Source of the DNA: Marsupella aquatica
Lineage: Eukaryota; Plantae; Marchantiophyta
NCBI GenBank assembly: GCA_973895155.1
Contig: OZ316896.1
Coordinates: 12,256,549 to 12,320,548 of the forward strand
Direction: 5' to 3'
Length of the DNA: 64,000 nucleotides
Part shown: piece by piece, positions 8,653 to 63,408 of the stretch
Layout of the letters: every line of letters starts with the position of its first letter
How positions within the stretch are numbered: the stretch's first letter is position 1
The notes under the pieces: model-generated
Database searches by the model: none
Told to the model about the DNA's origin: nothing
Seen by the model: only the letters and a program-made list of their open reading frames with translations
Translations under genes and position numbers: made by a program

Positions 8653-9439
8653 GCCTTACTAGCTGAGATTGACTCAGATTGACTCGGACCAAACATATAG
8701 GGCCCAATTTTTGAACCTCCACTAGGCCCCCATTTTTTTAACCTCCACTAAGTATGCACTAGTCTTTTCACCCCAATCGGGTCTTTTCACCCCACACTAC
8801 AACACTACCGACCCCTTTTGCGAACCCCGTCCCATCGCAACTAACAAAGGACCAAATTATGAAATTCCGGCGTTTGCGAAACGCTACGCATCGCAACCCT
8901 TTCGCATTCTTTGAAACCCATAGCTTCGCAATCGGACTTTCGCAACCCCTTCGCAACACCTTCGCACAGTGCGAAACTTATTTTATCACACATAAATCAC
9001 ATTTATGCGATCTCGACAGACTCTTTATCGGTTTGCGACGCGCTCTGAACTATAACTTATTTGCGAAGCTGTTGTCTTGACAATTCCGTTGCCATTCATA
9101 TGGTATCGCATAACTGCGTCAGTCAGGGTGTCGCACAATTGCGAAACCAAAAGTATCGCAATGTTCCAATACTCAATGTATGGCAAGTTTGCGATAGTAT
9201 GGCGTTCGCATGTGTTTCGCAAGGATAGTTTGAGGGCTGGGTTTTGTATATTTGGGTTCATAATTGGGTTGGGGTCTTATTGCTCCACATGAAGATACCA
9301 AAGCAAAACTTTATATATGCCAAAAATCCCTGAATGTACAAAAATTAGGGTTTTCTAAAACCCTATGGGGTATCAAATACCAAGACACTGTCCTTTGACT
9401 AATCCATATGCCATATGGAGTGAACTACATCTGCATCCT

Positions 9440-11479
9440 CTAGAATGGAGCCCGCCTACTCCTCTTTGCTGGCCTCTTCCCCTTGTCCTTCTTGCTTTGG
9501 GCGGGACGAGCTGGATGGGGAGGGGGTGGTGGTGGTGGTGGCGGTGGTGGTGGTGCCTGCTGCTCCTCCCCATCTGGCTCATCCTCATCATCGTCATCAT
9601 CCTCATCATCATCCTCCTGGTCTCCTGGTGTGCTAGGTGTGGCCCCTCTGGACCCACTCGTGGTGGCCCCGGTAGTGTCCCCATCATCAGCGCCGCTATC
9701 CTCCTCACTGCTATCCTCACTCCCCTCCTGCTCCTCCTTATCCTGCTTCCATGTCACAAGGTTAATTCAGGTTTAGGGTTAATAGGAAAAATGTATAAAC
9801 CTTATAAATGGAATGGGTGCGGGTTTAGAAAGGGTACTACAAATCACTCACATTAGCCAACTCTGCATCAACCAACTCAAAGAGATGTCTGGCCCCATGC
9901 TCTGCCCCTATCTCCATCTCCTTTGTTGTTATCTTGCGGCGGTACCTCTTATACTACCACAAAAAAATGAAACACCAAAACATAAGGGGCCCGGGTTAGT
10001 AACTAAGGGTACTTAAGCAAAAAAGGAATCCTAAAAAGGATAAAAAGGGTACCCTAACCAGAAAAAAAAACCCATTACCCTAACAAACATTTGTCACTCG
10101 ACACTAAATGTTTTTCAAAATGAAACAAGCTTTGCGAAACTCCCACCTTCGCAAATTCAAATATATTTAAGTTTGCAAAATAGACTGCGAATTGGATTGC
10201 CTTGCAATGGCTTCGCAAACCTTACGGGAAAAAGGTTATAATAGAGTTTGCGAAACAATTGCGAGGCAACCCGCTTCGCAATTGTTTCGCAAACTGTGCT
10301 TTTAAAAAAATCCGAGAAATGGCTAAGGCACGCAATGTGTCAGGGTGACCTAAAACGAAAGGGGAGGCCATAAGGGGTAAAGCAGAGGTCTGCGAGGGGC
10401 ATTGCAGGCAAGCAAACAACAATTGAAGGCAAAGGAAAAGAAGCAGGGGAGGAGGGGAGAGGACTCACGAAGGTTGCTTTCAGGCCGGGAAGTCCACCTT
10501 GCCCCATCTTGTGTGTGGTCTTGGGGCGTTTGCTGACTGCAAGGATGAACTTCTGGGGTGGTGTCCCCACTTCATCCACGATGTGCTGCAGCTGAGAGAC
10601 CTTCTCAGCCAATGCCTTGAGGTCTTTGTCTGACTTCCCGGCCTGAAGTGCCTTGGCCTCCTTCTCCTTCCAGAATTGGAGGTCCTTGGCTGCTTTCAGC
10701 TGCACCTCGACCTTATAGAACGCGTTCCACACATCCTCTGTGAATTGCACTGGCCTCCTCACGTTCTTGTACTCCTGCAAGCTTGCCAGGTAGGCCCTCA
10801 CCTTCCTCCTATCATGGTATCGTGCTTGAGACATTGAATTCAAAATTCTATCTGCAAGCCATTGGTCATCAATCTCTGCTCCATTTTTGAATGAATCTTT
10901 GACCTGAGTCATTACTTTCCTCTGCTCTGCTCTGCTTAGTTTCCCCCACTCAACACCTCGTGCAAAGCTAGTCCTCACAACAAGCCTGATAGTGCTCTTT
11001 GCCCCAGTGTAGGCCAACTCAGTAGGAATGCCCTCAACCAAGGCAATCAATGGCAGCTTCTTCCTCTCTTCCTCCTTTTTCCGCTGCGCCTCACGTTGTG
11101 CTTGAATCTCATCTCGTTCCTCCCTTCTCCTCTTCTTTTCGAGGGCTGCAGGAGAGAGTACTCCTGCCTTAGCCCTCTCCTCCTTCTTTCGTTTCTTCTC
11201 TCTGGCCTTCTCCTCAGCTGCAGCCTTTGCCTCTTTCTCCCTCTGAGCCTGCCCTGCTGCAACCCCGGTTTGCAAAGCTTGCCCTAAAAATGCACTCAAA
11301 GAAGCAATCCCAGCTGGTGTACTCAAATCCAAATGGCTCAGCTGTGTGGCATTGAGATGCTCGGCCATCAAATTTGTCCATTGATTACTCTCCTCATTCC
11401 TGTTCCCTCCATTGCCATTGCCACTCCCACTCCCACTTGCCCCTGCCCCATCCCCTCCACGCCCTCCACTAGAATCCAT
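9440..11479 (-). CDS. CACTA second gene, TnpA/Ptta-En-Spm-like accessory protein (tentative); exons 11479-10469, 9953-9852, 9742-9440; 471 aa, intact
   Basis: Two phase-0 introns with GTGAGT donors and AG acceptors join three ORFs without stops (1416 nt). Gly-rich N-terminus, K/E/R coiled coil, HKMGQGG motif reminiscent of the H-x-x-G-x-x-G motif of Ptta/En/Spm proteins, acidic tail, poly-Pro, basic NLS-like end KKDKGKRPAKRSRR. Confidence 0.7.
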
Positions 11480-11944
11480 AGCTATTCAACACCAAGCGCG
11501 CGCAAGCTCTCCTCCTGCCCTCCCTCACTTCAAAAAATGTTGAATGGGCCTCGTAATCCGGCGGGAAGGTCCGAATGCCCAGACAAAACACATTTGCGAC
11601 GTAGTCCGCATCGCAATTTGCGAATCAGCCCGCTTCGCAACTAGTATCTCAACTTTCCAAAACCAATGCGAAACCACACGCTTTGCAAAGCCTTCGCAAA
11701 GCTGCAGAGACACGAAAAAACGCTCTCAGGCTCTGTTTTTCCGAAGTTGTTGCGAAACATTTTGCTTCGCAAATAATGTGACCAAATTCTGAAGCAGGTT
11801 GCGAAGCAGGTCGGTTCTCAATATCGTGGCAATTCCTGGCGAATTTTTTTTTCACATTCTTTCCCTCCTCCTTTTGTTTAGGCCATGTAAGTTATACTAT
11901 GCCCTTTTGTGTAATTAAGAAATTCCGCCGTTTCAAATCCCGGC

Positions 11945-12420
11945 GTTTGTTAGGGTTGGGTCTTGGATGAAGCTGGTTTTTTTAGGGGTTAAAAGCGAGA
12001 TTACCAGTCAAACCTTCCGTTTTTTAAGCTATACATGGTGTGGGTGTAGGCTAATTTTGATAAGAGTTGGGTTTTGGTTTAAAATTAATAAGTGAGGAAA
12101 GGGTTTAGGATTAAAGTTGGGTTTGGGTTTAGGGTTTAAGTCTTTAATTTTGGGTTTAAGCAGGGTTTGCATTTATGGTTGTAGGCTTTTAGGGTTCAAG
12201 CAAAGGTTTAGGGTTTAAAACAAACGAGAGGAAGGGGATTGGGAGTGAGGGTCTAGGTTTTTGTAATAGGTCAGAGGTTTGGGGGTGAGGGTTTGGAAAA
12301 GGCAAAGCAAGGTTAGATGAGATTAATGTTTTAGTTGTTTTACCATGGGTTTTATGGGTTTTAATGGGTTTTATGGATCTTTTGGGTTTTAATGGTTTTT
12401 CCATGGGTTTTATGCTAACA
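11945..12420. promoter_or_regulatory. GT-rich, telomere-like/telo-box (TAGGGTTT) region between the two divergent CACTA genes
   Basis: Several TTTAGGGTTT, TTAGGGTT and GGGTTT variants (e.g. ~12128, ~12188, ~12207) between the ATG at 11479 (-) and the ATG at 12846 (+). Confidence 0.45.
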
Positions 12421-12845
12421 AAGGAGGAGGAGCTATGACAACTTGCAGGGTGCGGCACTTTTGCATGAATTGATACTAGCTAATGCGTATGCATCGTATG
12501 AGCCCGGGCATCTGGAGGTACGGACTAAAATAGATGGGTCTAGTTAGGCTTATTCATGTAATTAAAATTTTTGGTTCCCACTATCTATAAAGAGCACATG
12601 TATGTAAGGTGTTTGCTTTGTGTACTTGCAGCTTTTCTCATACTTCCAGATTCGGTTCATTATTTTAGAGCCACAAGACCTATTGGCACCGCTGAGCCTG
12701 GGTCTCAGAAAGGTATTTTTTAGTGTTCCTTTTCTGTTTGGTTTCATGTCATCATTACTTGAGAACTTACATATGTCCAGCTTGATATTGTGATGTTATT
12801 TGGTAATAACCCCTAACTTGCAAATTATACATCTTTGTAGGGGCA

Positions 12846-15800
12846 ATGTCTTCATCTTCTGAGATCTCCACCACAGATTCTTCCTCCTTCGATGAAGATA
12901 TACCACCTCCTCCTCAACCTCACACGACTGCACCTCCTCCTCGTGGTCCACCCCGTCAGCTTTGCCAATGTGCCAAATGCGTGGGTCAGGTTTCCCAAAA
13001 GTCCTATATATGCACCCAGCATATTGAGAGATATGGACGTTACGGACGTCATACAACAGGGGCTTCCTCATCCCATGTGGTAAGTGTTTACGCCTTAGTT
13101 TCTACCCTATTTCCACATTGCAATGGTGAAGGTTTTTAATTTCACACCTCTTGTTGTTTGTTTTGGTTTGGGTGGAATAGGTATCTAGTAGGCCTAGACC
13201 TGCGGCATCAGCACCTTATGTCCCATCACAAGGTGTTCTAGATGCTATAGGCAATGCATTTGCACAAGCCTTGGGTCTAGCAACAGCCCCCTCCAGTCCT
13301 AGGGCAGTTGGGGGTGAGCCTGTTGTCCCAAGAGGGAGAAAGCGTTCCAAGAGACGGCCCTGAGCGGATACTGATTTGTACAAGGCAGCGGTTACCGGTA
13401 GGTGGGGTAATTGCGAGTTTACTGGCAGATGTGTTCCTATCATCAAGGACTGGGATCCCCAAGACTCTTGGTTTGCCACAAGAGCTTTCCTATGGTGAGG
13501 AGGTAGAGGTTTGGGGAAGACGTTGGGTTATCAAACCTTCCACCCTTGGGGATAGACATGGCTATGGAGTTTTTGCTTGTGAAGACATCATTGTGGATAC
13601 CGAGAGTGGTAGTGGTGGACGCGGTCGAGAAGGACCTACGTTGTTTCCTTATGGTGGACCCATCTACAAGAGAAGACATTGGAACATGATCCTTGCACAA
13701 CATCCTGAGTGGAAGACTTATGCCTTGGAGTTAGATACTTTTGATGGAAACACTAGGAGGTATAGTGAGCAGCGGGTGATAGATGGGGACCCCATACGAA
13801 CTGGGAATATAGCTGGTTTCATAAACAGTACTGTGGGGACTCGCCCCAAGCGTAGGCAAAATTGTGAGTGGGTTTTCATTGAGGGTCCTCCACCAGCCCC
13901 TTATGGCCAGACATATCATCATGACCATTGTCTGGTTGTAGCTACTAGGACCATTCACTCAGGTGATGAGTTGTTTACTCACTATGTGTGGGATTAGAAA
14001 ATGACCATACACATGGCGTTTGGCCACATTTTGTATTTACACCAGTACCGATATTATTTCATGTTTGCACACCCCCATATATTCTTCTACATGTTGTAAC
14101 TATTTGCTTTGTAACTTTCAATTGTTTGCATTGTTTTTAGAATGTGCGACCCTCTCAAAATATGTTACTGCGGAGATTGAGAGCAGCATATCGGGAAATG
14201 GGTATGCCGGAAGAAGGACAAGGCTCTGAGTCACATTCCTCATCAAGTGACAGTGGAAGCAACAACCCTGATCGCAATGTACCTAGAACATATGAACAGG
14301 TTATTGATGACCAAGATAGAGCCATGGATGATTTTATGGTTGATTGGTTTGGTGTTGACGTCCCTGGTGATGATGCTGATCGAGGTGTCTGCTGATCAAG
14401 GAGGTCATGTGCCCCCCAATGATCCACGACCAAGACATACCCTCGAGGGACAGCGCCAATGGGAGGAAGCAGAGGAACATGCCCGAACTCCTATCTATGA
14501 GGGTGCTCGTTTGAGTTGTCTTTCTGCTATCTTGGGGTTGATGAATCTACAGGCCAAACACAAGGCAAGCAATGCCTTGTTATCTGATATGTTTGCACTT
14601 TGCCATGACCTTATGTTACCTTCTGGCAATGTGTTGCCAGGAACTTGGAAGGAGGCCAAGCGTGTTCTCTCATCAATTGGCATGGAATATCATATCATTC
14701 ATGCATGTGTGAATGATTGCATGTTATTTCATGGGGCCGATGAGAAGAAGACACAGTGTACTGAATGTCATGAGCCACGGTATGACCCCAACATGATTAC
14801 AAAGAAGGTGCCAAGAAAAGCTGTTTGTTGGTTTCCCATCATTCCTCGGTTGTTGCACATGTACAGGTGTTCTGATTTGGCAGAGTTGATGGTATGGCAT
14901 AAGACTCATCGATCAGAGCCTGGTGTTATGCGGTTGCCAATTGACTCTCCTGCAGTCAAACATATTGAGGAAACATGGCCAGACTTTGCACATGATCCTC
15001 GGCATGTGAGGTTGGGATTGGCATCTGATGGGGTTAGTCCTCATGCCCTTGGAGGCAAGGGAAGACCTACATCAGTTTGGCCTGTGGTTGTGATGAATTA
15101 CAACCTTCCACCATGGCTATCCATGAAGAAGGGGTTCCTCTTGCTGTCTTTGATTATTCCAGGTCCAAAAAAGGTGAAGAACTTTGACACTTATTTGGCA
15201 CTATTGATTGGAGAACTCCAAAAACTGTGGGGTGGAGTGTGGGCATATGATGGCAGGAAAAATACATGAGGCATTCCACGTGTATTTAAATTGAGAGGGG
15301 TAGTTTGTTGGACAATGCATGACTATCCTGGTAAGATGACTTTTTGACCATATGCCACCCTTCTTTGATATGCTCTTTAATATACTTGTTTGTCATGTGA
15401 CAACCCTAACATTTAGTCTGGTTTTATTTTTGGTGTAACCAGGGTTTGGCTTTGTCTCTGGATTGCAAACTCAGGGGTACAAAGCTTGCTCCACCTGTGG
15501 TCCACAATTGCAAGATATGGCAATTTGGTCCCCATGGCTTAGGAAGATTGTTTACATTGGGCATACAAAGTTTCTTCCGATGGGGCATGAGATGAGGTCT
15601 GACCCACTTTTATTTTCCTCCTTTGACATGCCCCTTGGTGATATGCAGGAAATTCCGGAACCAACAACTTTTGGGCATTGGAAGTCACTAGCTGATAGGG
15701 TGGCAGACCCTAATGATCCCCTCACCTTTGATGGTACTGGGTTGACGAGGTGGAGTATACTAGCCAGTTTGCCCTATTGGTCAGAGTTGAAGATCCGCCA

Positions 15801-17566
15801 TCTTTTAGACCCCATGCACATAGAGGGAAATGTGGGGAAGGCGTTGATAGCTCATTTTTATGGGGAGAAGGACACTAACTTTAGGGAGGCATGTGAAGAG
15901 TTGGAAATGCATCCAGATGTATGGGTACAAGTTGATCCTGCCACAGGTTTGGAACATCGTCCTTCTGCTCCTTGGGTGCTTAGTGTTGGCCAAAGACGTG
16001 AATTCTGGAATCGTATAGGGGAGATGCGGTTTCCTACAGGCTATGGTGACAATTTGAGGAAAGCTTTTGGGATGGAGGACAATCACAAATGGCCACGGTA
16101 TCTCAAGACACATGACTATCACCGCTTATTGCAGCATATATTGCCAGTGGCAATTATAGGGTTGGGGACCAAAGAAGTGCAAGATGCCATTTGGTCATTG
16201 GGTCGTTTGTTGAGATGGATATGCTCAAAGGAGATATATGTGGAAGAGATTCTCGGAATGGAGGTATTGGCAGCTGAGGTGGTTTGCAAGTTGGAGAAGG
16301 CCCTCCCTCCTTCCTTCTTTGATTGTCAGGTTCATTTACTTGTGCATCTTGTGAGGGAGCTAGGTTGCCATTGCTGGTCCAGTTCATTGTCGATGGATGT
16401 ACTGGCTTGAGCGTTACATGTCAATCTTGAAGGCTTATGTACGTAACCGTGCACGAGTGGAGGGAAGCATAGCTACAAGATACTTGGCTGCAGAGAGCAT
16501 GTTTTATTGTAGTAACATCTTGGCCACCATTGATCGGACTTTACCACGTACTTGGATGGAGGAGAGGCAAGAGGAGGAGGACCGTTTAACAGGAGCAACA
16601 AAAACACGCATGCTTACATCAACAGAGTGGACACAGTTGAATACATTCATGTTGAGTAATAGCAATGTCATGGATGAATGGAGGGAGTTTTATGACAATG
16701 CCAAAAGAATGAGTCAAAGGGCAAGGATTTTTCCTAAGTTGCATGAGTTTATGAAGGAAAAGTTGGTTGAGTTGGATGGCATTTTGGCACAAGGAGGAGA
16801 TGTCTCACAGTTTCCTACTATGACAAATGACATTCGGACCATTGTTCATGGCCCATTGAGAGTGGTAACATCCAAGACGGCCATGTGGACCCAAGGGAGA
16901 CACTTCAGGTTTCACTAGTTCCTAACCTTGTTTTCCATATTCATGTACTACTACTTAAGATATAGTAATCATTTTACTTAAGATAAGTGTGTTTTTCTCT
17001 TTTGGTATGAAAGGTTCCTCATAACATGATTAGTGTTTTTTGTGTAGTAGTAACAATATATGGGTCTTGTTAATTTCAGAATTTCTTCCCTTGATGAGAA
17101 GAGGGCTCGTACTTTTGATTGTGGAGTTCAAGGGCAGTTTTGTCAGGACTCCCGGAGTAGCCGACATGACAGGAACATTGTTCGTGATGTTGTGCCACAC
17201 TATGGGAAGATAGAGGAGATTTTGGTGGTCTCATATGACAACCAATCTAAGTTTGAGGAGTATGTCTTCAAGTGCAAGTGGTTCAAAGTGAACCTTGTTG
17301 GTAATAATCGCACTGTACTCCAAGATGAGAGTGGGTTTACACGGTTGAGGACAAGTGCCACTAGTTTTCAAGCATCTCATTGGCAAACGTCAGAGCCATT
17401 TACTTTCCCATCTCACTTGGAGCAATGTTTCTACGTTCCATACCCCTTAGACCCAGAGTGGTCACTTATCATCACATATGTGTCACGGTCTCGTTCCATT
17501 GTTTCAGACAAGCCAGACACTATTTTTGTGTCAGATGTAGAGGACATTGAAGGTGACCAAGTGTGA
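12846..17566 (+). pseudogene. CACTA TnpD/Tnp2 transposase, disrupted; exons 12846-13079, 14141-15330, 15443-16908, 17080-17566
   Basis: Exon 1 encodes CQCAKC...CTQHIERYG, like the transposase-associated Cys/His domain. Downstream motifs: IHACVNDCMLF, RLGLASDG, SVWPV...YNLPPW, TMHDYPG, LDPMHIEGNV, HLLVHL, RWMYWLERY, FKCKWF. Introns are GT-AG. Lesions: frameshift ~14385, in-frame TGA 15267-15269, frameshift ~16360. Confidence 0.92.
13181..13997 (+). CDS. SET-domain protein-lysine methyltransferase exon inside CACTA transposase intron 1 (SET ~13524-13988)
   Basis: ORF 13308-13997 has SET motifs in canonical order: IKPS...GYGVFA, PYGG, IDG...GNIAGFINS...NC, VVATRTIHSGDELFTHY, then stop. There are no post-SET cysteines. 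A strong acceptor lies at 13180. Reading from that acceptor gives a 1-nt frame offset near 13360. Confidence 0.85.
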
Positions 17567-18815
17567 GAGACACTTATGGATATTTAAACCAAAAATCTAT
17601 ATCATGGATTGTTCATGTTGTTTCTTAATTAATATTTCATACACCATTAGTGTGGTAGGTATTTTCATTTTGGACTCCTACTTTCAAAAGAGGTCATGCA
17701 TATAAGTGACATGGGTACTCCCTCCCTTATCCCTCCTCCCTCTTTGAACCCAAACTCTCCTTTCTCTTCCAAAAACTCCATAGCTTTTTCTCCTCCCTCC
17801 CTCTTCGCTAAAGTCTCTCCTATTTTTAGTAAACCCTCTTTGGACTCCCTTCTTCCTCCGTCCCTCATCCACCTTCCAACTCCCTTCCTCCCTCTTTCAC
17901 CTTTCACCTCCCTCCCTCCTCCTCCCCCATTCAAACTCTAACCTAGATGCACACACAAGTCTAACATAAACGTTTGCGAACTGTTTGCGAAACTAAACAA
18001 ATCCCAACCAAATCGCAATTCTGCCATTTCAATCGTTTCTCAATTATTCCATACTATACGCTTCACTATTTTGCGATATCCAGAAAATGCCACCTTAACC
18101 ATCCATATCATTTCGCATATTTGCCATACAAACCCATCGCAAATTGTTTGAAGCTAACCTTTTCGCAAACATCCTCCAATACTAATTGTTTTGCATCATT
18201 AATGTTACCATGGTTTTGGACTTTCAGAGCGGTCGCGGAGCCTTCGTAATGTGTTTTGTAATCTCTGTAGTTTCGCAAACTATTGTGATACAATAAAGTT
18301 CGCAAAATGTTTGCGATGCAAATCGCATGGAAGACCAAAGTTGCGATACCACAAGTATCGCAAATTGCGATGCGTATTGAGTCATCAACGGTTTGAAGCA
18401 TCTGGAATTGCAAATGTGTGTCCGGACTCAAATGAGCTTCGCAAAAGGGCAAAATATGTTGTAGTGCCAGTGTCACAGTCACCCCAATGTTGCAGCCCAG
18501 CAGTTTTCCCAAGGCCAGCGGCCGTGTGCTCCACAAGCTAACGGGACACAACCTCCGTACCAAGATGAAGTGCTAATGGCCATGGGCCCTCAGTCTTGTT
18601 GTGATTGAACTCTTTGCAGTTGGCGAGTGTAGTTACTCAATGCTTCAGCTTTACTCGTGGTTCAAACCCGGTTCAAACCATGGCTGGCTGATGTTGGTGA
18701 GTGTGAAACTTGAGGCCTCTTGTTATGATCTAACTTCTCTGTAGCTGCTCTGGCAAGTGTACTTGATGCTTCAGCTTTTCTCATGGTTCAAACCATGGCT
18801 GACTGATTTTGGTGA

Positions 18816-19484: not shown

Positions 19485-19615
19485 TGGCAGATGTAGAGTT
19501 GATTAAAGGATGTCAAGGCAAGAAAACAATGTTGAGAGTAGGAAAATATGTCGAGGAGAGAAAAGATGAGAAAGATATCAAGGTGAGAAAAATATCTCAA
19601 GGCGAGGCAAGAAGA
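19485..19615 (-). repeat. Inverted, degenerate copy of the 18-bp minisatellite at 21225-21630
   Basis: GATGTCAAGG..., ATGTCGAGGAGAGAAAAGAT and GATATCAAGGTGAGAAAAAT are reverse complements of TCACCTCGACATCTTTT-type units. Confidence 0.65.
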
Positions 19616-21224
19616 TATAGGTTTTGCAATGTAATTATTGAGACATGTTATGTGTGATCCTAACCATGCACTTGTGGTGGTCATGTTCAATACTTGTACA
19701 TTGCAAAAAAATGTCACAGATTGCATAAAAGATGTCATTGCAGATGTCCATGTCAAAAAAAATGGTTGCAAAAGTTATACAAGAGATATGTGATGACAAT
19801 ATAAGCAGACACATTCAAACAACCCTAGGTGGAGGGTGACATCCCCCCTCTTCCTCATGCACCTCCTCTTCCCATTTCTCTTGCCCCCCCCCCCCCTAAA
19901 AAAAAAAGCAAGGGTGTCCCTTTTCTTTGCTTTTCCCTCTTATTGCCTTATATTATTTTCTTTATTTTCACCTTGAGTTCCTTTGCTCCAATTTGTCTCA
20001 TCCCCTATCTTGTACTTATGGGAGAATATGCTACTATTCATCCCTTCACCCATGGGTGCATCATTAATTCTCTTTCCTACTTTGAATTCTATGTCTCCTA
20101 GTCCTTATCCCCTCATAATGGTGTCCCAAGTGCTCATTCCAATGGCAACACATGACACTCACATAGAAGGATGCAATCATTCCCCTCTTAGAGAATCTTT
20201 GTGCATCAAAATAATTTGTCTTGTATGCTTTGGGTTCAAGAGATAGTTTTTTACTAATGAAAGGTTGGGATAAAAGAGGTTATAAATCCAATGGTCATTG
20301 AATGTTCCCTCCAAAAGTGATTTTGTGACCAGATGACCCACCACTTTTGGCAGGATAGGGTATTATAGTAGTAAGATAGTAAGATTTGATTTCTTATGTC
20401 ATCTGATGCCTCATTGTTTCTTATTGTTATTGCCAATTGGCTCGCTTTAGCTTTTGCGCTTTGATTCATTTGAATTAAATAACATATGTAGAAGTAACTC
20501 ATTAAAGGCCTATTAGTACTGGACTTGGTATGGGTACCTAATCACTATAATATACAATCCCACCCTTTTTTACTTATGGTCTTACAAAATGCAGTTTTGG
20601 AGGGAACTCATTATGACCCTTGGATTTAATGCCTAAATATTCATGTCCATGAGATTGGGTGAAAGGATGAATAAAGACTCTCTCCTAGCTTGGGATAGGG
20701 ATGCGCTTCCACCCACACCTAGACTATGGCACTAACATCCATAAAAGGATTCTAATATCAAGGTGACTGGAAATTGAATGTGAGTTGACATGTGACTATA
20801 ATGGGTAGGTGGGTCTAACAAGAAAATCTAAGTAGACTCACATCACTTTTGGACACATGTTTGTCACATTCAATTAATGTAAACATATAGAAAAAGAACA
20901 ATACAAATTAGAGTTTTCAGTTTAAAAGACATCATTCATAGGAAAGTGGTAAAAAAGGCTATTGAGGGGAGAACTAAATTAATTTCTTACTTTTTCTATT
21001 CTATGTGCGAAGAATTTCTTCCAACTTACATTATTTAACACTAAAATCCTAATTCTTTTTTGCAATAACCATATAATTGACCAAGGACACAAATGAATGG
21101 CCCCACACATAAAAATGGCCACAACAATGAAATGGTCACAATGACAATTGGTTGCAACAATGAAATAGTCGCAATAATAAAATGGCTGTAATGACAATTG
21201 TGCACTGCATGGGCAATGGGGTTA

Positions 21225-21630
21225 TCAACTCGACACCTTTTGTCGCCTCAATATCTTTAAGTTTCTCTCCTCGACATCTTTTCTCACCTCGACATCTTTA
21301 TCACCCCAGGATCTTTTAATCACCTCAACATCTTTTATCACCACAACATTTTTTATCATCTTGACATTTTTTATCACTTCAATGTCTTTTTCTCACCCTT
21401 GACATCTTTTTATCCCCTCGACATCTTTTATCACCTCTACATTGTTGATCACTTTGATATCTTTTTCTCATCTCAATATCTTTTCTCACCTCAACATCTT
21501 TTCTCATCTTGACATCTTTTATCACCTCAACATCTATTTTCATCTCAACATCTTTTTCTCTCCTTAACATTTTTTTCTCTCCTCAATATCTTTTCTCCTC
21601 TCCTCGAAATCTTTTATCACCTTGACATCT
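21225..21630 (+). repeat. 18-19-bp minisatellite (consensus ~TCACCTCGACATCTTTTTA), ~20 copies
   Basis: Direct inspection. Confidence 0.9.
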
Positions 21631-23400: not shown

Positions 23401-24220
23401 TCAGATACAATGGCCATAAAATCTTGTAAATACCATTTGGGGAAGGGTTATTAACCTACCCTGAAGCTCACGGGTCTCATCAAATAACACTTTTCACATT
23501 TGGGGTTTCATGTAACAAATACCTCAGATTTGGACAAATCATGCCATTATAGGAGAATATAGCAAAGCTTGAAAATTAGGGATGATGACATTAGATCATA
23601 AAGAATAGGTCATAACTTTTTCACAACATTGTGTGCAATATTTTTTCTTTTTTTTCTTTCATCAACCTCTAGAGTGACTAATGGTTATGGCATAAGATCA
23701 ATCCTAATGGCAAATATGGACTATGAATTCTACAGTCCATCTACAACTATAATAAGAGATCCCATGTTTTTTCATCCTTTGTTCCAATACAAAAAAGTTA
23801 CTGGGCGGGAAATGTCCACAGCCATTGGATTATTTGGCTGTTTTCCTTGACCATTGATGAAAGAAATGTGCACCCCTAGCACATATGTGCTTCCCACTGC
23901 CCCATAAATACCCCAGTCGGACTCCCTATGGGCCGGCCCTCCTAGTGCAACTCACTTGCATAGGGCTCCTAACCCATAACTACTGTAGTGACTTCAAGTA
24001 CATCAAGTTGCAAACTTTGAGACGCCCTATTGTGCCACTTTTGCAAGGTGAAAATGTGCCACTTTTGCGAGGTTAAGAAACCTTTGCTCGACGCCTGTGA
24101 CTCCATCGTCATTGCCAACAGCAGACTAAAACCTCAAGACCTCTTCGCGCGTGGTGGAGCTCGAAAGCTTGATGTACTGCAGAGAATGAAGTAGTGCATA
24201 GGGTGACGGCTTTCGATGCG

Positions 24221-27200
24221 ATGGAGCTGAGCACAGGAGGAGGAGGAGGAGGAGGCACCGTGAGCGGGGGTGGGAGAGCAGGAAGCGGGGTCATAAACGT
24301 AGCCGGAAGCACTGGTAACGTTCGTGCAGCAGTTCAGGACCTCTTCAATCTGTATCTTGCGCGGCCAGCCAGCAGTAGGAGTGCTGTCATTCAACAGAAC
24401 TCTAAAGCTCGGGTGAGGACGAATACCGCTTCAGGAAAGCACGAACTCCCCACAGATGAGCAATTCACTCTGGACTTCTTTCAACTGCAGAAACATTTTC
24501 CTGACCCGGAGCAATTGCGGTCATCAGCTGAGTCTGTTCTTGCTTCGTTACTCGTGCAATGCAGTTCTCACTCCATTCAGGTCGAATTTCTCCTCTTCGC
24601 GCTGCGATCGTTGGCGAGGTTAGGGGTCCTGCACTGGGACTCTTTTATTCCCTTGTTATTACATGCGGTTGGGACGTTGGAGATTTCAGCAGGGCTGCAG
24701 CAGGCCGGACTTCATAACACTGTAGGGACCCCACAAGGTCCTCAATCGTCCCCAGGGAATGCCCACATGATGCTGATGGGAGGAGGGTCTGGAGCTCTGC
24801 CTGGTGTTGCGGCTTCTCCAGCTCCCAATTCTGCTGTGGTAACCTCCCCATCCCATTCTGCAGTTGACGTTTCCACAAATTTCTCCCAGTCAAGCAATGT
24901 AACAGGAGGGAGCCCATTTGGTTCTGGGAACAAGGGTACTGCAGTAGGCACCAAGGTGCTAGCCTGGTTGTGTCCTCTAATTTGCAAGATCCTGTCGGCC
25001 GCTCTAGATACCGACCTGAAGCCTGCAGTTGTGCACGACATCCTCGTGCAGGTTGTGAGCTGGATAAATCAATGGGATTCAAAGGGGCCAAATGGGAGAG
25101 AAGTACAATCTGTCAATAGGTGGGAAAGCACGGTGGAATCATCAACCTGGCTGCACAGCTGTGTGGAGCTCGTATGGGCGTTGATTGATGAGAACAAGTG
25201 TCGGGTACCCCTCTATTCTCTGCTTCATGGGCACTCCCAACTGCAGGTTGACCTCTGGCCTGAGAATGAAGAATTGTTTGCCTTGTTTCTTGAGGTCCAC
25301 CGCAGACGTGACAAGATTGCTTTGCACATGCTAATGCTTGACCATCATCTGCACTGCCCAACTTTTGCCACATTGCGAATGACCGCACTGACTTATCCTG
25401 GCACTCTTGGAGAACCTCTTCATGGAGAGGATGTTGCAAATGCTGTGTCCAGGGGTAGTCTTGACTGGGAGAGGGCAATGCGGTGCTTAAGCCACGCCTT
25501 GCGTTGTAATCCCTCTGCTGATTGGTGGAGAAGGGTTTTAGTTTTCGCTCCAAGGTATCGGAAGGATTCACAGTCTCAACCGCCTGCTCCTAGGCCAGGA
25601 CCAGTGTTCATGACACAACCAGCTCCGGAGTTCTCCTCAGATATGATCTGTGAGGCTGTTGTCGATCGCATCATGGAACTCATGCAACCTATGCAACCGA
25701 CCAATAATAATGGCAGTGGATCTATTCATGTTTCCATGACGGAGTCCGGGCGCTGGCAAGAGTGGCTTATTATTGCAGACCTCTTCTACTTTTTCATGCG
25801 AAGTGGTTTCATAGATTTTCTGGAGTTTGTTGACAAGTTGGCAATACGATTTGCCCGTGGGGAGCAAGCAGTCATTCGCAGCAATCATGTCACATGGCTT
25901 CTTGCTCAGGTATTTCGCCTAGAGACAGTCACAGCTGCTCTTAGCACTGACTCCAGAAAGCTGGAAACGGCTCAGAAGATCTTGTCCTTCCACATGGCAG
26001 AACGACCAATCGATCAAACAACAAATCTTTCCCCGCAGAACATGCTTTTAGATTTTGTGGGGAGCAGCCAAACTCTAAGGCTTTGGTCAATTAATCGTCA
26101 AATGATGGAGCAAATCACTGGGAATCGTATGCCTGAGCATATTCAGAAGGGAAAACAAATCGATGAATGGTGGAAGCAGGTCGCCAAAGGTGAACGTGTT
26201 CTCGATTATTCTAACTTGGATGATAAGTCGATGGGAATGGTGTGGGTGCTTTCACATACAGTGAGCCAACCGATATGTGACTCAATAATGACTTGGATAA
26301 ATCAAAAGGGTCATGGTGAAGTGGTTGGCGTAGGGGGTCAGGCAGGAGAGAGAATGCCTGTTGTGCTTGAAGTTCGCCCTCTGCCAATCTTGCTACTCTC
26401 CGGGCTCTCTTTGCATCTATGTTTTAGGCTCATCAATAACATTGAGGAGGTCATGCTTGCCGGACAGATAATTCCTAGCATTGGGATGATAGAAACGTAT
26501 GTGCGTCTGTTGTTAGTTGCACCCCAGACACTCTTCAGGCACCATGCTCATGGAATTATGCAGAGATTTCAACAAGGATTGTCTAAGCCTGGACTCTCTC
26601 TTCTTCTCTTGGAGCTTATGAACTATCGTCTCATACCTTTGTACAGATATCAGGGAAAAACTAAGCAGCTGATCTTTGACATTGCCAAAATCCTCATAAC
26701 TGTAAAAGTCAAACGCGGTGAACATCGTCAATTTCGGCTGGCTGAGAATCTCGCCATGAATTTGATATTGTCTTTGCGAGAAGTTGTACTGATCAAGAAG
26801 GAGCTTAAAGGTGCCACAACAGAGTTCACGGAGACATTGAACAGGGCAATGGTGATCAACCTTGCATTTACAATGAAGACCAGGGGAGTTGCAGAGATTG
26901 AACAGCTGCTCGTGCTGCAGCCAGCTCTGGACCAAATCTTGGCAAGCACCTACCACAAATGGTCAGAGAAGACATTGCGGCACTTTCCTCCCACTCTGAG
27001 AGATGCAATCAAGGGACGCCCGGACAAGAGACCTCAGATTATAAACCAATGGCAACAGGTCGAGGCGACTGTTTTACATCATTGCCGACAGCTCTTGGCA
27101 CCAAGCCATGACCCTTCGTACATACTTACAGCTCTCAATGCCATGAATCACAGCTTTCCCCAGCATCGACAATATTTGTGTGCAGGAGCTTGGATCCTGA

Positions 27201-29113
27201 TGGATGGACATCCAGAAAGTATCAATAGCGTCAATCTTGGACGTATCATGAAGGAACTTCCACCTGAGGAGGTGACAACAAATACTTATACAATGGTTGA
27301 TGTCCTACTTCACAATATTCAGCTTCAGCTTCAGCATGGTCATCTATTGCATGATCTGTTGCTGAGAGCAAGTGCCAGTCTAGCAATGCTCATGTGGACT
27401 CAAGAGATCCTGCCGTTTGACATCACTCTGTTAGCTCTGGCTGACCGTGACGATGACCCACATGCTCTCCGCTTGGTGGTGGGTTTACTGCTCGATAGGC
27501 AAGAGTTCTTAAACCGTGTGCAGCTCCACTTGGTTAAAAGTGGTCAAAATGAGCGTATCAACCATTGGGACCACCCAGGTCCGTTCCAGAGGCCGGAACC
27601 TCAGCAAGCCCTTGGTCAGCATCTAGCTGGGAAAGACAGGTATCCTATATTCTTTGATGAGATGTGTTTGCGCGCTCTGCCTATCATACCACTCATTATG
27701 TATCGCCTCATAGAGAATGATGCAACAGAGACTGCAGAGCGACTCCTGGCATCATACTCTGGCCTCTTTTTCTATCACCCAGCGCACTTTACGTTTGTCC
27801 GAGATACCCTGGCATACTTCTACGGAAGCCTCCCATCCAAGCTTGTGGTTCGACTCCTTGGGAGCCTCGACTTGACGAAGATTCCCTTTTCAGATACATT
27901 CCTGCAGCACGTTTCCCTAAACACAGGAAATACTCTTCCACATGAGTACTATTCAAACTTGCTTCAGGGTCTTGTCACCAAAGTCATTCCCCCTGTGAAC
28001 AATGTTCGCTCAAAGTCGAGTGCCACTGCAGCAGACGGACTACCTCCAGCTTCTCGTTCGAGCTCTAACAGAGGTCCAGCAGTGTCAACCAGCGGTGCAA
28101 CAAATACACCTGAGGTTCAAAGGGCGTTTTATCAACATCAGGATCCGGGAACCTACACTCAATTGGTTCTGGAGACTGCAGTGGTGGAGCTGTTGTCACT
28201 ACCTCCGCCACCTAACCAAGTGGTGACAATGCTTGTCAATGCAGCTGTACGTGTCCCTGCCCCTCCTACAGGACATTCATCTTACGGGACCCCAAGGAGC
28301 CCATTACTGCCCACTTCACCGACAAGTGTAGGTGGAGACAACTCCAACGCAGGGAACATTTCTGGGAGTCAAGCTTTTTCACTTACCTCGAGCCCGCTAG
28401 TTATACAAGCATGCGGACTCCTGTTAGCACAGTTGCCAACAGCATTTCATGGAGCCTTCTATTCGGAAACTGCACGAATAATCAAGGATAGTTGGTGGGT
28501 GATTGATCAAAACAAATCCGCTCGGGAGCTGGGTCCTGTATTTAGTCATGTAATCTGGGATCCGACATGGGCAGTTCAGGATGAGATGTCGAATGTGTTA
28601 GGAAATACGCTGGCTCTTGTACATACTTTTGGTGTGAATCTTCCTTATGATTGGTTGGAAGGAATGCATGCCATTATCAAACTTCAGAGACCCGTCACCT
28701 CTGTTGTGCATTTGAGACTGGCTTACAGGATCATGGGACCTTTGTTATCTCGTCTGGTGATCTCTCGACCTCTTTTTACAAAGACGCTTGCTTTGCTCTT
28801 TGCAATCATGGCAGATGTATTCGGTCGCAACTCACCGACATCGCCTGCCATTGACCTCAGTGAAATATCCGATCTTGTGGACTTTTTACATCATGCAGTG
28901 ATCTTGGAGGGACAGGGACCAAATAACGTTGGCGGAAAACCTCGTCCAGACACTCTTGCATTCTGTACTAAGGCTGTAGATCTGCTTCATCCAGATCTGA
29001 AACACCTGTTTCGTCATCTTAGTGCTGATGTCAACACTTCCATTTATGCTGCCACTCATCCCAAAATGACGCAAATTCAAATGCCTGCGTCATCTTTTGG
29101 GACTTCAATGTGA
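24221..29113 (+). CDS. MED23: Mediator of RNA polymerase II transcription subunit 23, single exon, 1630 aa
   Basis: 4.9-kb uninterrupted ORF from the first ATG at 24221. Plant MED23-like segments: LFNLYL, LDHHLHCPTF, GSLDWERAMRC, RSNHVTWLLAQ, RGEHRQFRLAENL, FPQHRQYLCAGAW, LVLETAVVELLSLP, SIYAATHPK. Confidence 0.92.
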   Translation: MELSTGGGGGGGTVSGGGRAGSGVINVAGSTGNVRAAVQDLFNLYLARPASSRSAVIQQNSKARVRTNTASGKHELPTDEQFTLDFFQLQKHFPDPEQLRSSAESVLASLLVQCSSHSIQVEFLLFALRSLARLGVLHWDSFIPLLLHAVGTLEISAGLQQAGLHNTVGTPQGPQSSPGNAHMMLMGGGSGALPGVAASPAPNSAVVTSPSHSAVDVSTNFSQSSNVTGGSPFGSGNKGTAVGTKVLAWLCPLICKILSAALDTDLKPAVVHDILVQVVSWINQWDSKGPNGREVQSVNRWESTVESSTWLHSCVELVWALIDENKCRVPLYSLLHGHSQLQVDLWPENEELFALFLEVHRRRDKIALHMLMLDHHLHCPTFATLRMTALTYPGTLGEPLHGEDVANAVSRGSLDWERAMRCLSHALRCNPSADWWRRVLVFAPRYRKDSQSQPPAPRPGPVFMTQPAPEFSSDMICEAVVDRIMELMQPMQPTNNNGSGSIHVSMTESGRWQEWLIIADLFYFFMRSGFIDFLEFVDKLAIRFARGEQAVIRSNHVTWLLAQVFRLETVTAALSTDSRKLETAQKILSFHMAERPIDQTTNLSPQNMLLDFVGSSQTLRLWSINRQMMEQITGNRMPEHIQKGKQIDEWWKQVAKGERVLDYSNLDDKSMGMVWVLSHTVSQPICDSIMTWINQKGHGEVVGVGGQAGERMPVVLEVRPLPILLLSGLSLHLCFRLINNIEEVMLAGQIIPSIGMIETYVRLLLVAPQTLFRHHAHGIMQRFQQGLSKPGLSLLLLELMNYRLIPLYRYQGKTKQLIFDIAKILITVKVKRGEHRQFRLAENLAMNLILSLREVVLIKKELKGATTEFTETLNRAMVINLAFTMKTRGVAEIEQLLVLQPALDQILASTYHKWSEKTLRHFPPTLRDAIKGRPDKRPQIINQWQQVEATVLHHCRQLLAPSHDPSYILTALNAMNHSFPQHRQYLCAGAWILMDGHPESINSVNLGRIMKELPPEEVTTNTYTMVDVLLHNIQLQLQHGHLLHDLLLRASASLAMLMWTQEILPFDITLLALADRDDDPHALRLVVGLLLDRQEFLNRVQLHLVKSGQNERINHWDHPGPFQRPEPQQALGQHLAGKDRYPIFFDEMCLRALPIIPLIMYRLIENDATETAERLLASYSGLFFYHPAHFTFVRDTLAYFYGSLPSKLVVRLLGSLDLTKIPFSDTFLQHVSLNTGNTLPHEYYSNLLQGLVTKVIPPVNNVRSKSSATAADGLPPASRSSSNRGPAVSTSGATNTPEVQRAFYQHQDPGTYTQLVLETAVVELLSLPPPPNQVVTMLVNAAVRVPAPPTGHSSYGTPRSPLLPTSPTSVGGDNSNAGNISGSQAFSLTSSPLVIQACGLLLAQLPTAFHGAFYSETARIIKDSWWVIDQNKSARELGPVFSHVIWDPTWAVQDEMSNVLGNTLALVHTFGVNLPYDWLEGMHAIIKLQRPVTSVVHLRLAYRIMGPLLSRLVISRPLFTKTLALLFAIMADVFGRNSPTSPAIDLSEISDLVDFLHHAVILEGQGPNNVGGKPRPDTLAFCTKAVDLLHPDLKHLFRHLSADVNTSIYAATHPKMTQIQMPASSFGTSM

Positions 29114-57823: not shown

Positions 57824-58153
57824 TGTTGAAACTCACGCGGTCTTGTCTCTTGCCTGCTCCCATGCCTCGCTGTCAGATGTGGTTACTGTACACTCTGGCT
57901 GCATCGGATCTTACTGACTACCTTGAGCTTGCTGCCGGTCGGTAGGCTGTCTGGTCGATCCCGTTTGACTCTGATCCTCTTTCTGTCCTATCTGGCTGCG
58001 CCCACTTAGACTGACTACTACTTATATTCCCGGTCAGAGTTTACTTGTCGTTTTCCTTTGCTCACGCACTTGGACCCCACTCCATTCATGTATTTAAACG
58101 CACTATTGTGCCTTACGTTAATCAAGTTTCATAATCATCTGAAAACTTCCACA
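57824..58153 (+). repeat. 5' LTR
   Basis: Near-identical to 63409-63738. Confidence 0.97.
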
Positions 58154-58165
58154 TGGTATCAGAGC
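58154..58165 (+). promoter_or_regulatory. Primer-binding site complementary to initiator tRNA-Met
   Basis: TGGTATCAGAGC directly after the 5' LTR. Confidence 0.9.
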
Positions 58166-58211
58166 CTACCGCTCCTTGCACCTTTATCTGATTAGAGTGT
58201 TACTATTTACC

Positions 58212-61200
58212 ATGGCGTTGAGTGATGCTACCAAGATCTCATTCTCAGACAGCGACAAATTAGTAGGAGCACACAACTATATTGTGTGGTCCTTCTACGT
58301 TGAGCAGATCCTGAGAGAAAAAGATCTATGGGAGGTCGTTGACCCCACCATCAATACGCCAGCATCAGCATCTGGAGGAAGCAGCGCAGCACAGCAGCCA
58401 GCTCCCTCACAGGCACACAGTGCAGCCTCGACATCTTCAGGACCAACTGAAGGAACTGCCGTTCAGCAGCAACCTACGGGAGAGCCGAAGAGTCTGACTG
58501 AGGCTCAGAAACGGAAGGAGAGGGTAATCATTATTCTCACCAAAACTGTTCATCATTCCATTGTCCCTATTGTTAGAAGGCTGCGGAGTGATCCTGCCAA
58601 ACTCTGGGCAACACTTAAACAGAAGTATGAGTCTTCTGTAATCCAGCGCAAACTGGACCTCAAGACTGCACTAGTCGAGGCTCGCCTATGTGAAGGGTCC
58701 TCTATGGAGGACTATCTCAAAAAGATCGAGTACCATGTGATGGAACTCGGTAGTGTAGGAGAGGAAGTTGACGATAAAGAACTGATCCAGATTGTGTTGA
58801 GAAATCTACCTGAAAGCTGGTCAGCATTCAAGTCAGCTTACGGTGTCATGTATGCCAAGGACCCTCTAGCTACTTTTGCAGATCTGGAAGAATATCTACA
58901 GGCTGAGGACTTTCGTCGCAAATCAAGCAATGAAGGCAGCGAGCAGTCTATGCTGGCCTCTGCTCACCAGAGACGTGGAGAAGGAGGCAGAGGACATCGT
59001 GGGCGAGGACGAGGGCGCCACGATCGAGCAAGACAGCAGAGAGGCTACGAAGGTGGAGCAGATCGACGCAACTGCAACTTTTGTGGCAAACGAGGCCACT
59101 GGGAAGCAGACTGCTTCATCAAAGCTGCAGACACTGAGATCAAGACAATGTCCGTATCTCAGCTGAAGGACCTACATTCCAAGATCAGAGACATCAAGGC
59201 TGCTCCTGAACCAAAAGCATATTTTGCTGAGGGAGACATCGGAGACAACAACTCTGACGTTGGCGAACCCAGTGAGCCCAAATCCTCACTTACGATTGAG
59301 GCCATGCTCAGTGAGTTTGATACTCCAGGCATTGATGACCAGACCTGGATCATCGACAATGGAGCCTCAGCTCACATAAGTCGCAATCGTAGTAGCCTTA
59401 CTAATCTGATCAGCAGCACCCCTACGTCTAATGTTCTCACGGCTAACGGCTCTAAAATGCCCATATCCGGATCTGGCTGTATTTCTCTTTCTGGCAATAA
59501 ATCTGTTCGTGATGTTTTGTACGTGCCGTCTATTACAAGGAATTTACTCTCTGTTGGTAAATTTACAGATCAGGGTCATCAAGTGCTATTTACTTCCAGT
59601 AGATGCTACGTCTATGACCCCAATAGACCCTCACAGCCTTATCTCAAAGGCTACAGAGACCCTCATAGTAGATTGTATAAGCTCAAATTGCCTGTCGTCT
59701 CTCCGGACAAATATTTAGGTAACACTAAATTAGCACATCCCAACATGTCCGCTCAGTGTCACTTAGTCGAACCTCCATCGATGTCTCCATCTGAACTTTG
59801 GCACCAAAGGCTAGGTCACTCTAGTCATCAGCGCATCAGCTACATGACTCAAAACGGGCTTATCACGGGAGCTCCATCAAATCTTCTAGTCAGCAAAATG
59901 ATCTGTGAGCCCTGTGTGAAAGGCAAGCAGTCTCGACACCGAGTACCAAAATCAGCAACTTTTCGCGCCACCAAACCTCTGGAATTGATTCACACAGACC
60001 TCTGTGGTCCTTTACCGGTCCTAGCTCTCTCTGGGGCCCGGTACATCATCACCTTCACTGATGATTTTTCTCGACATTCTTGGGTCTTCTTTCTCAAGTC
60101 CAAAACTGAGGCTTTGGAAAAATTCAAGATCTTCCAACAAGAAGTCGAAAACTCACTAGGCACCAAAATTAAATGCTTACGAAGCAATCGAGGCGGAGAA
60201 TATATGTCTGATTTATTCATGGCATTTTGTCAGCAACATGGGATACGAAGGCAATTTACTGTAGCTCAAACTCCTCATTAGAATGGAGTCGCCGAACGTA
60301 AAAATCGCACCCTTCTAGATATAGTAAGGAGTATCTCAATAGGCTCAAACTTTCCATCCTTTCTCTGGGAAGAATTAGTCAAAACGGCTAATCACATCAA
60401 CAACCGATGCAGCACTCGTGCATTAAATCTCTCTACACCAACAGAATGTCTCACCGGTACCAAACCTGATGTCAGCCACTTCCGTATCATTGGAAGCACA
60501 ACTCACATTCATGTTCCAAAGGAGATGCATAACAAGCTTCAACCCAGGTCCATTTGTACTGTACTTGTTGGATACGATGACCACAGCAAAGCATATCAAT
60601 GCTTTGACCCGATCTCTCGAAAAATTCTTGTTTCCCGAAATGTGGTCTTTGACGAATCAACTCTTGGAGACTTCTCAACGGGACAAGCCACTATCTACGA
60701 GAGCATTCTCAATATGTTTCCACTTGAAGATGAACCTGACCACTTGCAATCTCCAGCCGAACATTCAACTCCATCAACAACTGGCTCTCCTCCAACACCA
60801 ACAGCCACCGACTCCACACCAGCAACCGAGTCTACATCCCCAAATCTTCCTGACTGCAGGATTGACTATCCCGAGCCTGAACCCCACGAGGACACATCCG
60901 CTTCCACCACTGATCCACCGCTTGTCCCTCAACCACGTCAAGCTCGTCGTGCAAAACAACGTGCCACTCAACGTCTCCTCCAACGGTCACGTCCACCCTC
61001 CAGTCGACTCACATCTCATCCCTATTGGCTATCTAATTTCACAACATACCTTTCAGAAACTACTGAGCATCTCCTGTTAGCTCTTCTAGCTGACTCCATC
61101 GACAATATATCTGTAGAAGATGCTCTCTCTGATTCCCGTTGGACGGAAGCCATGCAAGCTGAAATGAATGCTCATCTTAAAAATGGCACTTGGGAACTTG

Positions 61201-63286: not shown

Positions 63287-63408
63287 GGTGGTTTCTATCC
63301 AATGTACAAAATTTGATTTGGATAGATTCAGTTACCATACCGACGTTCCATATAATTATCACAGCACACTCTCCTCCTGAATCTTTGCGAGCCATGGTTG
63401 AGGGGAGG

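Follow-up and report, generated by a model that had tools for sequence, protein, structure and literature searches.

Why would a DNA transposon in a liverwort carry a gene for a SET-domain methyltransferase? The question is raised by a 64-kb window of the Marsupella aquatica genome (64,000 nucleotides in all, positions 12,256,549 to 12,320,548 of contig OZ316896.1), in which a CACTA (En/Spm) element contains an exon coding for a SET domain. The original prediction, made from the letters alone, had placed a transposon-encoded minimal SET-domain methyltransferase at 13308-13997. Our answer is that a family of bryophyte CACTA elements maintains a SET gene under selection, that the copy seen here is broken, and that the intact protein may methylate histones and thereby counter host silencing. 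We give this whole chain, from selected gene to anti-silencing histone methylation, a probability of roughly 0.45. Its first links, namely the SET fold, the place of the gene in the element and the selection acting on it, are as good as certain.

Is the SET domain real? The frame 13281-13997 holds every motif on which the original prediction rested (GYGVFA, PYGG, IDG..GNIAGFINS, NC and ELFTHY), and Pfam places PF00856 at about 13560-13985 (E 3.3e-6; 27.9 bits, above the cut-off of 22.4). As had been claimed, the SET segment contains neither an intron nor a pre- or post-SET cysteine cluster, reads NS in place of NH, and keeps the catalytic-type tyrosine, Y201, which is found in 63/69 family sequences. 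A single-sequence search of the PDB gave no match; a profile search of the same database returned the Legionella protein LegAS4 first (E 7e-6) and eukaryotic SET proteins next. For structure prediction, an intact relative, P0003 (80% identical to this copy), was folded with 86 sequences, and the resulting AlphaFold model has the expected SET fold (predicted local distance difference test score, pLDDT, 94.2; predicted template modeling score, pTM, 0.88). Foldseek matched this model to LegAS4 (best, E 2.3e-7), SET8, MLL and ATXR5, with E values from 2e-7 to 2e-5. VIA gave Z scores of 11-12 and root-mean-square deviations of 2.2-3.2 over 117-135 residues, a tie across EZH2, SET7/9, Set1, SET8, ASH1L and LegAS4; the top matches of both programs are all SET enzymes. 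Viral SET proteins in BFVD score like cellular ones (top viral match E 3e-7, 22% identity). Descent from Legionella or viral SET proteins was considered and rejected because the structural scores are tied.

The gene is larger than the unit first proposed. Exon 1 (12846..13079, + strand) encodes a Ser-rich start and a Cys/His motif, CxCxxC-x9-C/x-xxH, and ends in a phase-0 donor. After intron 1 (13080..13180, +; GT..AG, 101 nt), exon 2 (13181..13997, +) encodes a basic linker, a conserved N-terminal extension and the SET domain, and closes with its own stop. With its upstream Cys/His exon and linker, the whole SET gene comes to ~349 codons, and the description of a minimal, stand-alone SET does not hold. 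The start at 13308 fell as well: from 13308 to ~13460 that frame is not the coding one, homologues align there to the frame opening at 13181 and afterwards to the SET frame, and the TTG start at 13308 was dropped as lying in the wrong frame. Nor is the gene intact, as had been implied. Exon 2 is interrupted by a TGA (13361-13363) and by one inserted base near 13461; the transposase is broken by 4-base insertions at 14378 and 16358 and by a TGA at 15267-15269. We compared these sites with sister copies, namely contigs from four sequencing runs on two coded organisms. Wherever sister contigs cover the site, the stop at 13361 is replaced at their full depth; many or most of them lack the extra base near 13461, both 4-base insertions and the stop at 15267. 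The copy in the window is therefore dead, while the common form of the family looks open at these sites.

What carries the gene? It lies in a complete CACTA transposon of 9,672 bp (8795-18466). Perfect 10-bp terminal inverted repeats starting CACTA open at 8795 and 18466, the left one (CACTACAACA) occupying 8795..8804 on the + strand and the right one 18457..18466 on the - strand. Target-site duplications of CCA stand on both flanks (left, 8792..8794, assigned to no strand; right, 18467..18469), and the identical 10-base terminus opens the element in four related loci, L011, L014, L037 and L039. The hexamer TCGCAA is clustered inside the ends, with 13 copies on both strands in the left subterminal region (8818..9222) and 13 in the right (17974..18444), and again in the interior, with 7 copies at 10132..10292 and 8 at 11594..11804, where the cluster separates two divergent genes. 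Altogether 43 copies fall within the element and 18 elsewhere in the window; the respective densities, 4.45 and 0.33 per kb, differ ~13-fold. Frames downstream of the SET exon match Transposase_21 (E 2e-32), DUF4218 (E 6e-18) and DUF4216 (E 1e-7). They fall into a first transposase exon (14141..15330, +), which follows a phase-0 acceptor and begins Transposase_21, a second (15443..16908, +; limits predicted from GT/AG sites) with the remainder of Transposase_21 and DUF4218, and a last one (17080..17566, +; start predicted from an AG site) with DUF4216. CACTA ends, a 3-bp duplication, this set of three domains and clustered subterminal repeats are the marks of the CACTA (En/Spm) superfamily, and all are present.

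Base composition bears on the history of the element within its host. The CpG observed/expected ratio is 0.29-0.35 in the element versus 0.54 in the neighboring MED23 gene, and CHG stands at 0.69-0.91 of expectation versus 1.2 in MED23. Low values in both contexts suggest long exposure to host methylation; given the CpG depletion, the host has likely methylated the element.

Three further observations concern the element and its relatives. The TCGCAA core sits within the Arabidopsis TnpA-Spm1 target motif CCVTCGCAAA (10.64898/2026.08.24.746577), the full form of which occurs once in the element. Three four-base differences from sister copies (14378-14381, 16358-16361 and 12476-12479, the last evident against one contig only) have a common pattern, namely two bases of a triplet, their reverse complement and then the full triplet. 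This pattern fits the excision footprints of elements with 3-bp duplications, and other CACTA-type elements may have visited, and then left, this copy. Finally, extra CACTA-type ends beside and within the left end of the related element in two loci (L014:6060-6741 and L037:3832-4513) suggest nested insertions.

Does the element maintain the SET gene or merely carry it? Relatives were collected by a word search (55 matches among 72 candidates), a full scan (92 clusters at 50% identity) and a profile search (72 matches among 3,893 candidates). All named members are bryophyte, from seven Sphagnum species, Calypogeia fissa and Riccia sorocarpa; when the organism was looked up for 20 of the 92 cluster representatives, 5 proved to be Riccia and 15 had no organism label. 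The closest labeled protein, from the liverwort Calypogeia fissa, is 76% identical over 341 aligned residues, with the window gene read with X at its two breaks. We also examined 39 metagenome loci with a median identity of 87-89% to Sphagnum proteins; they stem from few samples and represent essentially one subfamily, and L039, which has no SET match, was dropped. Exon 1 is present in 14/18 loci with room upstream. The predicted linkage of homologues to Transposase_21 is borne out by a transposase exon in 23/26 loci with room downstream and by the Riccia model P0139 (46% identical), which combines SET and Transposase_21 in one gene model. The seven loci that lack exon 1 or the transposase exon are truncated SET fragments. 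The full-length models P0210 and P0211 match only PF00856 in a Pfam search and contain none of the flanking domains of host families (CXC, AWS, pre/post-SET, PHD, SRA). No host SET family appears among the 92 representatives or the 72 profile matches from 3,893 candidates, most of these matches being nameless. In viral contigs 0/21 pattern matches, and in prokaryote genomes 0/32, are relatives, the patterns being short, exact and drawn from the close clade, such that distant relatives could escape them.

Selection on the SET gene resembles that on the transposase. The ratio of nonsynonymous to synonymous substitution rates (dN/dS) between the window and the loci has a median of 0.157 for the SET part (27 pairs; proportion of synonymous differences, pS, 0.50), pairs that have one long branch in common and amount to about one comparison; for the transposase parts it is 0.12-0.19. 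Among the loci themselves the SET dN/dS is 0.78, and stops occur in 9/27. Low dN/dS against the window together with decay among the loci is the usual pattern of selection in the transposing lineage and decay after insertion. Because the SET value of ~0.16 is like that of the transposase, we conclude that the element maintains the SET gene. One might instead read the stops in this copy and in 9/27 related copies as those of a decaying host SET fragment, passively carried in the manner of Pack-CACTA elements. That account is largely refuted and now hardly credible: dN/dS between subfamilies is 0.157, the family extends to 92 clusters at 50% identity, the position within the element is fixed in Sphagnum-like loci and in Riccia, and no host family appears among the largely nameless matches. 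The original prediction of a transposon-borne SET lineage, as opposed to a recent host capture, thus stands on the transposase linkage, the dN/dS of 0.157 and the lack of a host SET family among the matches, most of them nameless.

How old is this lineage? A quick tree of 69 rows, all family members, with 20 short rows dropped and no outgroup, was used to describe clades. In it the window (13494-13994) and Calypogeia, both liverworts, group with the moss Sphagnum in a 20-row clade (support 96), far from the liverwort Riccia. Synonymous divergence (dS) between the window and Sphagnum-like loci is 0.8-1.7. The grouping of liverwort with moss could reflect horizontal transfer or old paralogous lineages. 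As a separate lead, obtained without an alignment, an Atlas search with P0003 gave as its second-best cluster (0.96, 64 members) a SET family that is mostly from Basidiomycota and may be another mobile SET lineage.

Why is the SET exon placed between exon 1 and the transposase? Phase-0 acceptors precede both the SET exon (at 13181) and the first exon of the transposase (at 14141). Among related loci, the exon 1 donor GT is kept in all 16 that have exon 1, an in-frame acceptor for the SET exon is found in 14/16, with introns of 111-118 nt, and the acceptor AG of the transposase exon is kept in 20/23, with conserved codons just after it and a closed frame upstream. Moreover, NCBI gene models from Calypogeia and Sphagnum (e.g., P0210 and P0211) splice exon 1 to the SET exon. 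From these splice signals and gene models, exon 1 very likely joins the SET exon. The equal phase and conserved sites make it probable that exon 1, predicted to be common to both products, also joins the transposase exon directly, skipping the SET exon. Neither predicted splice junction is among the joints listed for contigs of 8 of 13 sequencing runs, a result that says nothing about expression. An N-terminal Cys/His domain is the usual beginning of plant CACTA transposases, and skipping of the SET exon would provide such a start. Could the two instead form a single long SET-transposase fusion, spliced from a donor inside the SET exon? Four models (P0070, P0100, P0214 and P0139) do join a partial SET exon to the transposase exon, but the three Sphagnum models among them use three different junctions, all four cut off or pass the conserved stop of the SET gene, and a simple donor scan of 13181-14140 yields two candidates only, both 5' of the SET domain and in phase 1. 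We consider such a fusion very improbable.

Is the SET protein an enzyme? Residue conservation was counted in the 86 sequences. The glycines of the cofactor GxG motif are kept in 74/78 and 76/78, N160 in 79/79, E196 in 68/70, N148 in 73/83 and Y113 in 75/85; Y90 is found in 62/81, with F in 19. Conserved residues map onto Tyr135, Tyr159, Asn181 and Tyr220 of LegAS4 (numbering taken from the alignment), which are cofactor-cleft or active-site residues (10.64898/2026.05.29.728679). The structural alignments end with model residue 204 at SET7/9 338, SET8 339, EZH2 729 and Set1 1057; if the last four residues are ungapped, Y201 would occupy the position of the catalytic tyrosine. In place of the canonical RFINH the family has G-F/Y-I-N-S, with Gly in 75/82 and Ser in 79/83. 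Of the yeast Set1 mutants at this His, H1017A is hyperactive, but H1017L and H1017R are null (PMC3585878), and LegAS4, with Phe at the motif-His position, methylates H3K14 (10.64898/2026.05.29.728679). Since Set1 H1017A and LegAS4 are both active, the change of the His does not preclude activity. Two positions ahead of the catalytic Tyr the family has a small residue (T, A, V or C); in Set1, Y1052V raises trimethylation 2.7-fold, and Y1052V and Y1052A keep or raise it (PMC3585878). Judged by these residues, the protein is likely to be catalytically active and probably adds more than one methyl group.

How would such an enzyme serve its element? In the chain we favor, alternative splicing of one transcript would yield the transposase or the SET protein. 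The SET protein would bind S-adenosylmethionine (SAM) and methylate a lysine more than once, and its basic linker would direct it into the nucleus. A DNA-binding protein encoded by the element, perhaps the product of the divergent open reading frame (ORF) described below, or the common exon 1 would bring it to the TCGCAA clusters, and the resulting histone marks on the element's own chromatin would counter host silencing. Given activity, we see slightly better than an even chance that the substrate is a histone, that methylation has an anti-silencing effect, and that the enzyme is delivered to the TCGCAA clusters by one of these two routes. The analogy is with Arabidopsis, where accessory products of CACTA elements generated by alternative splicing are anti-silencers (PMC13547354; 10.64898/2026.08.24.746577).

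Besides the branch common to all the selection pairs, several points weigh against this chain. The structural evidence comes from P0003, at 80% identity, and not from the window copy. The structural ties run across enzymes acting on H3K4, H3K14, H3K27, H3K36 and H4K20, and the substrate is therefore unreadable from them; naming it from structural neighbors was rejected. With regard to splicing, a direct junction of exon 1 to the transposase occurs in 0/8 of the longer proteins that include exon 1, the eighth codon of the transposase exon encodes a conserved Met that permits a separate transposase start, and PF13963, the N-terminal transposase-associated domain, has no match in exon 1, its single weak appearance being in the Riccia-like relative P0154 (E 0.031, below the cut-off). 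With regard to catalysis, Set1 R1013H loses trimethylation (PMC3585878), and 75/82 family sequences have Gly at that Arg. The chain ends 3 residues past the catalytic Tyr in 19/63 sequences and at most 7 residues past it in 43/63, and therefore lacks a C-terminal flank (post-SET or cSET), which a review describes as required for SET activity (PMC3980110). Tyr231, the sixth residue named in LegAS4, has no counterpart in the family. Finally, the SET part, with a net charge of -3 to -5, is not strongly acidic; the histone-binding surface of LegAS4 is (10.64898/2026.05.29.728679).

What do these points leave for the alternatives? The missing flank past the catalytic Tyr and the replaced His and Arg of the motif would fit an enzyme that is weak or dead and retained as a binder or decoy for histone tails or SAM or to block a host methyltransferase complex, or one that needs a partner to complete its pocket. 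Yet all the lysine-channel tyrosines, the cofactor Asn and GxG are kept in members down to ~30% identity, and both Set1 and LegAS4 tolerate the loss of the His; we regard this outcome as unlikely. In an active enzyme the flank could be substituted by the conserved N-terminal extension (~45 residues), by a family-specific loop, or by a second subunit or partner.

An active methyltransferase could also have a non-histone target: the element's own transposase, the product of its divergent gene, or a factor of the host's silencing machinery. The tied best structural matches include small enzymes of the SET7/9 and SET8 type, SET enzymes with such substrates exist (10.1101/264291), the lack of strong acidity fits this reading, and the common exon 1 could position the SET protein beside the transposase. 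Nothing speaks directly against it; transposon-borne SET genes elsewhere are, by annotation only, histone methyltransferases. We rate a non-histone target as somewhat unlikely. Quite unlikely, in our view, is an active histone methyltransferase whose mark, for example on H3K27, would be repressive or milder and would limit the element's own activity or make silencing reversible. The chlorovirus vSET methylates H3K27 (10.1101/264291), EZH2 is among the tied best structural matches, and transposons are marked with H3K27me3 in liverworts and hornworts and mostly with H3K9me2 in mosses (10.1101/2022.10.24.513474). On the other side, the top viral structural matches are no better than the cellular ones (E 3e-7, 22% identity), and characterized accessory factors of plant DNA transposons activate their elements (10.64898/2026.08.24.746577). 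Because bryophytes differ in their transposon mark, H3K27me3 versus H3K9me2, the substrate of the SET protein would be informative.

What would an anti-silencing histone methyltransferase mean? Known anti-silencing factors of plant DNA transposons, VANC and TnpA, work by binding DNA and recruiting enzymes of the host. A SET enzyme encoded by the transposon, if true, would itself write marks. In its fullest form the proposal is of a bryophyte CACTA histone methyltransferase that is made from the transposase locus by exon skipping, is active without a C-terminal flank and counters the silencing of cognate elements, in an old family whose members may have passed between liverworts and peat mosses; we advance this tentatively, as a possibility with rather less than an even chance. 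The missing flank also offers a probe of the minimal requirements for SET catalysis. Furthermore, many bryophyte annotations of a "SET domain-containing protein" are transposon genes (one 90% cluster has 360 members) and would inflate counts of host epigenetic enzymes.

The divergent gene is the second accessory gene of the element. Its ORF (10340..11479, - strand) is mostly helical, and a probable later exon (9440..9766, -; limits tentative) is acidic and proline-rich with a basic tail. The ORF is conserved at 55-59% in 9 loci with a dN/dS of 0.19; it has no match in Pfam, no Atlas assignment and no useful PDB match, and its predicted model has a pLDDT of 57. We take it to be a candidate TnpA-like DNA-binding factor. 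TnpA-like proteins appear to be confined to flowering plants, according to a preprint (10.64898/2026.08.24.746577), and if the divergent ORF is TnpA-like, their known range would widen.

Elsewhere in the window, MED23 (PF11573, E 4e-32; 24173-29113, +) is the neighboring host gene, which has no introns and consists of a single reading frame of 1,646 codons. At 19489-19605 and 21224-21630, a tandem array of an 18-base unit is accompanied by inverted copies ~2 kb upstream of it, together probably a non-autonomous element. A Copia-type retrotransposon (58143-62717, +) encodes gag, integrase and reverse transcriptase; its two long frames are separated by a single in-frame stop. The N-terminal domain of RNase H1 (PF01693, E 4e-18) is matched by an ORF at 62804-63331 (-).

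How does the SET gene compare with known systems? In a full-text literature search, which covered neither Repbase Reports nor closed bioRxiv supplements, we found no report of a SET gene in a land-plant CACTA element, and the term "SET domain" is absent from the main text, as available, of a preprint with a structure survey of 962 Spm proteins (10.64898/2026.08.24.746577). SET genes have been reported in HarbingerS and MuDR elements of Phytophthora (PMC12730594), as well as in Helitrons and, under the name PAG2, in the Plavaka elements of red algae, members of the EnSpm superfamily (10.1101/2025.02.11.637652). Compared by description, the HarbingerS, MuDR and Helitron genes, mainly oomycete, are likewise SET genes captured by DNA transposons, but in other superfamilies and other hosts (PMC12730594; 10.1101/2025.02.11.637652). 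Plavaka PAG2 comes from an EnSpm/CACTA-superfamily DNA transposon with a PF00856 SET domain, as here; also compared by description, it forms an accessory gene of its own, with the SET joined to an N6-adenine methylase (PF01555), in elements of 17-19 kb (10.1101/2025.02.11.637652). In the Marsupella element, by contrast, the SET exon is flanked by a Cys/His exon and a transposase of the plant type (Transposase_21, DUF4218, DUF4216) within 9.7 kb, and a Pfam search found PF01555 in neither P0210, P0211 nor the ORFs of the element. The oomycete and red-algal captures are known by annotation, and the available parts of those accounts describe no tested activity (PMC12730594; 10.1101/2025.02.11.637652). 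With intact-looking Sphagnum and Calypogeia copies and a small, well-folded domain, the targets of transposon-borne SET proteins become directly testable.

The closest parallels in organization are maize En/Spm, with TnpA and TnpD, and Arabidopsis Spm3, which have CACTA ends, a 3-bp duplication and clustered subterminal motifs, and which produce transposase and accessory protein from one locus by alternative splicing, a likeness that is predicted here (PMC13547354; 10.64898/2026.08.24.746577). TnpA, however, is a regulator that binds DNA and brings in DNA demethylases of the host without removing H3K9me, whereas the accessory product here has an enzyme fold (10.64898/2026.08.24.746577). Legionella LegAS4/RomA is similarly a small SET protein without cysteine clusters or the motif His and with matching active-site Tyr and Asn; the identity is only ~21-29%, LegAS4 has a C-terminal helix and ankyrin repeats, and its VIA Z of 11.3 ties with those of eukaryotic SET proteins. 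Chlorovirus vSET and other small viral SET proteins are also compact and encoded by a genetic parasite, but vSET is a stand-alone homodimer acting on H3K27 (10.1101/264291), and the protein here has ~150 extra N-terminal residues. The conserved transposon SET gene described here thus differs from known cases in its host, in its place inside the transposase locus and in its truncated C-terminus.

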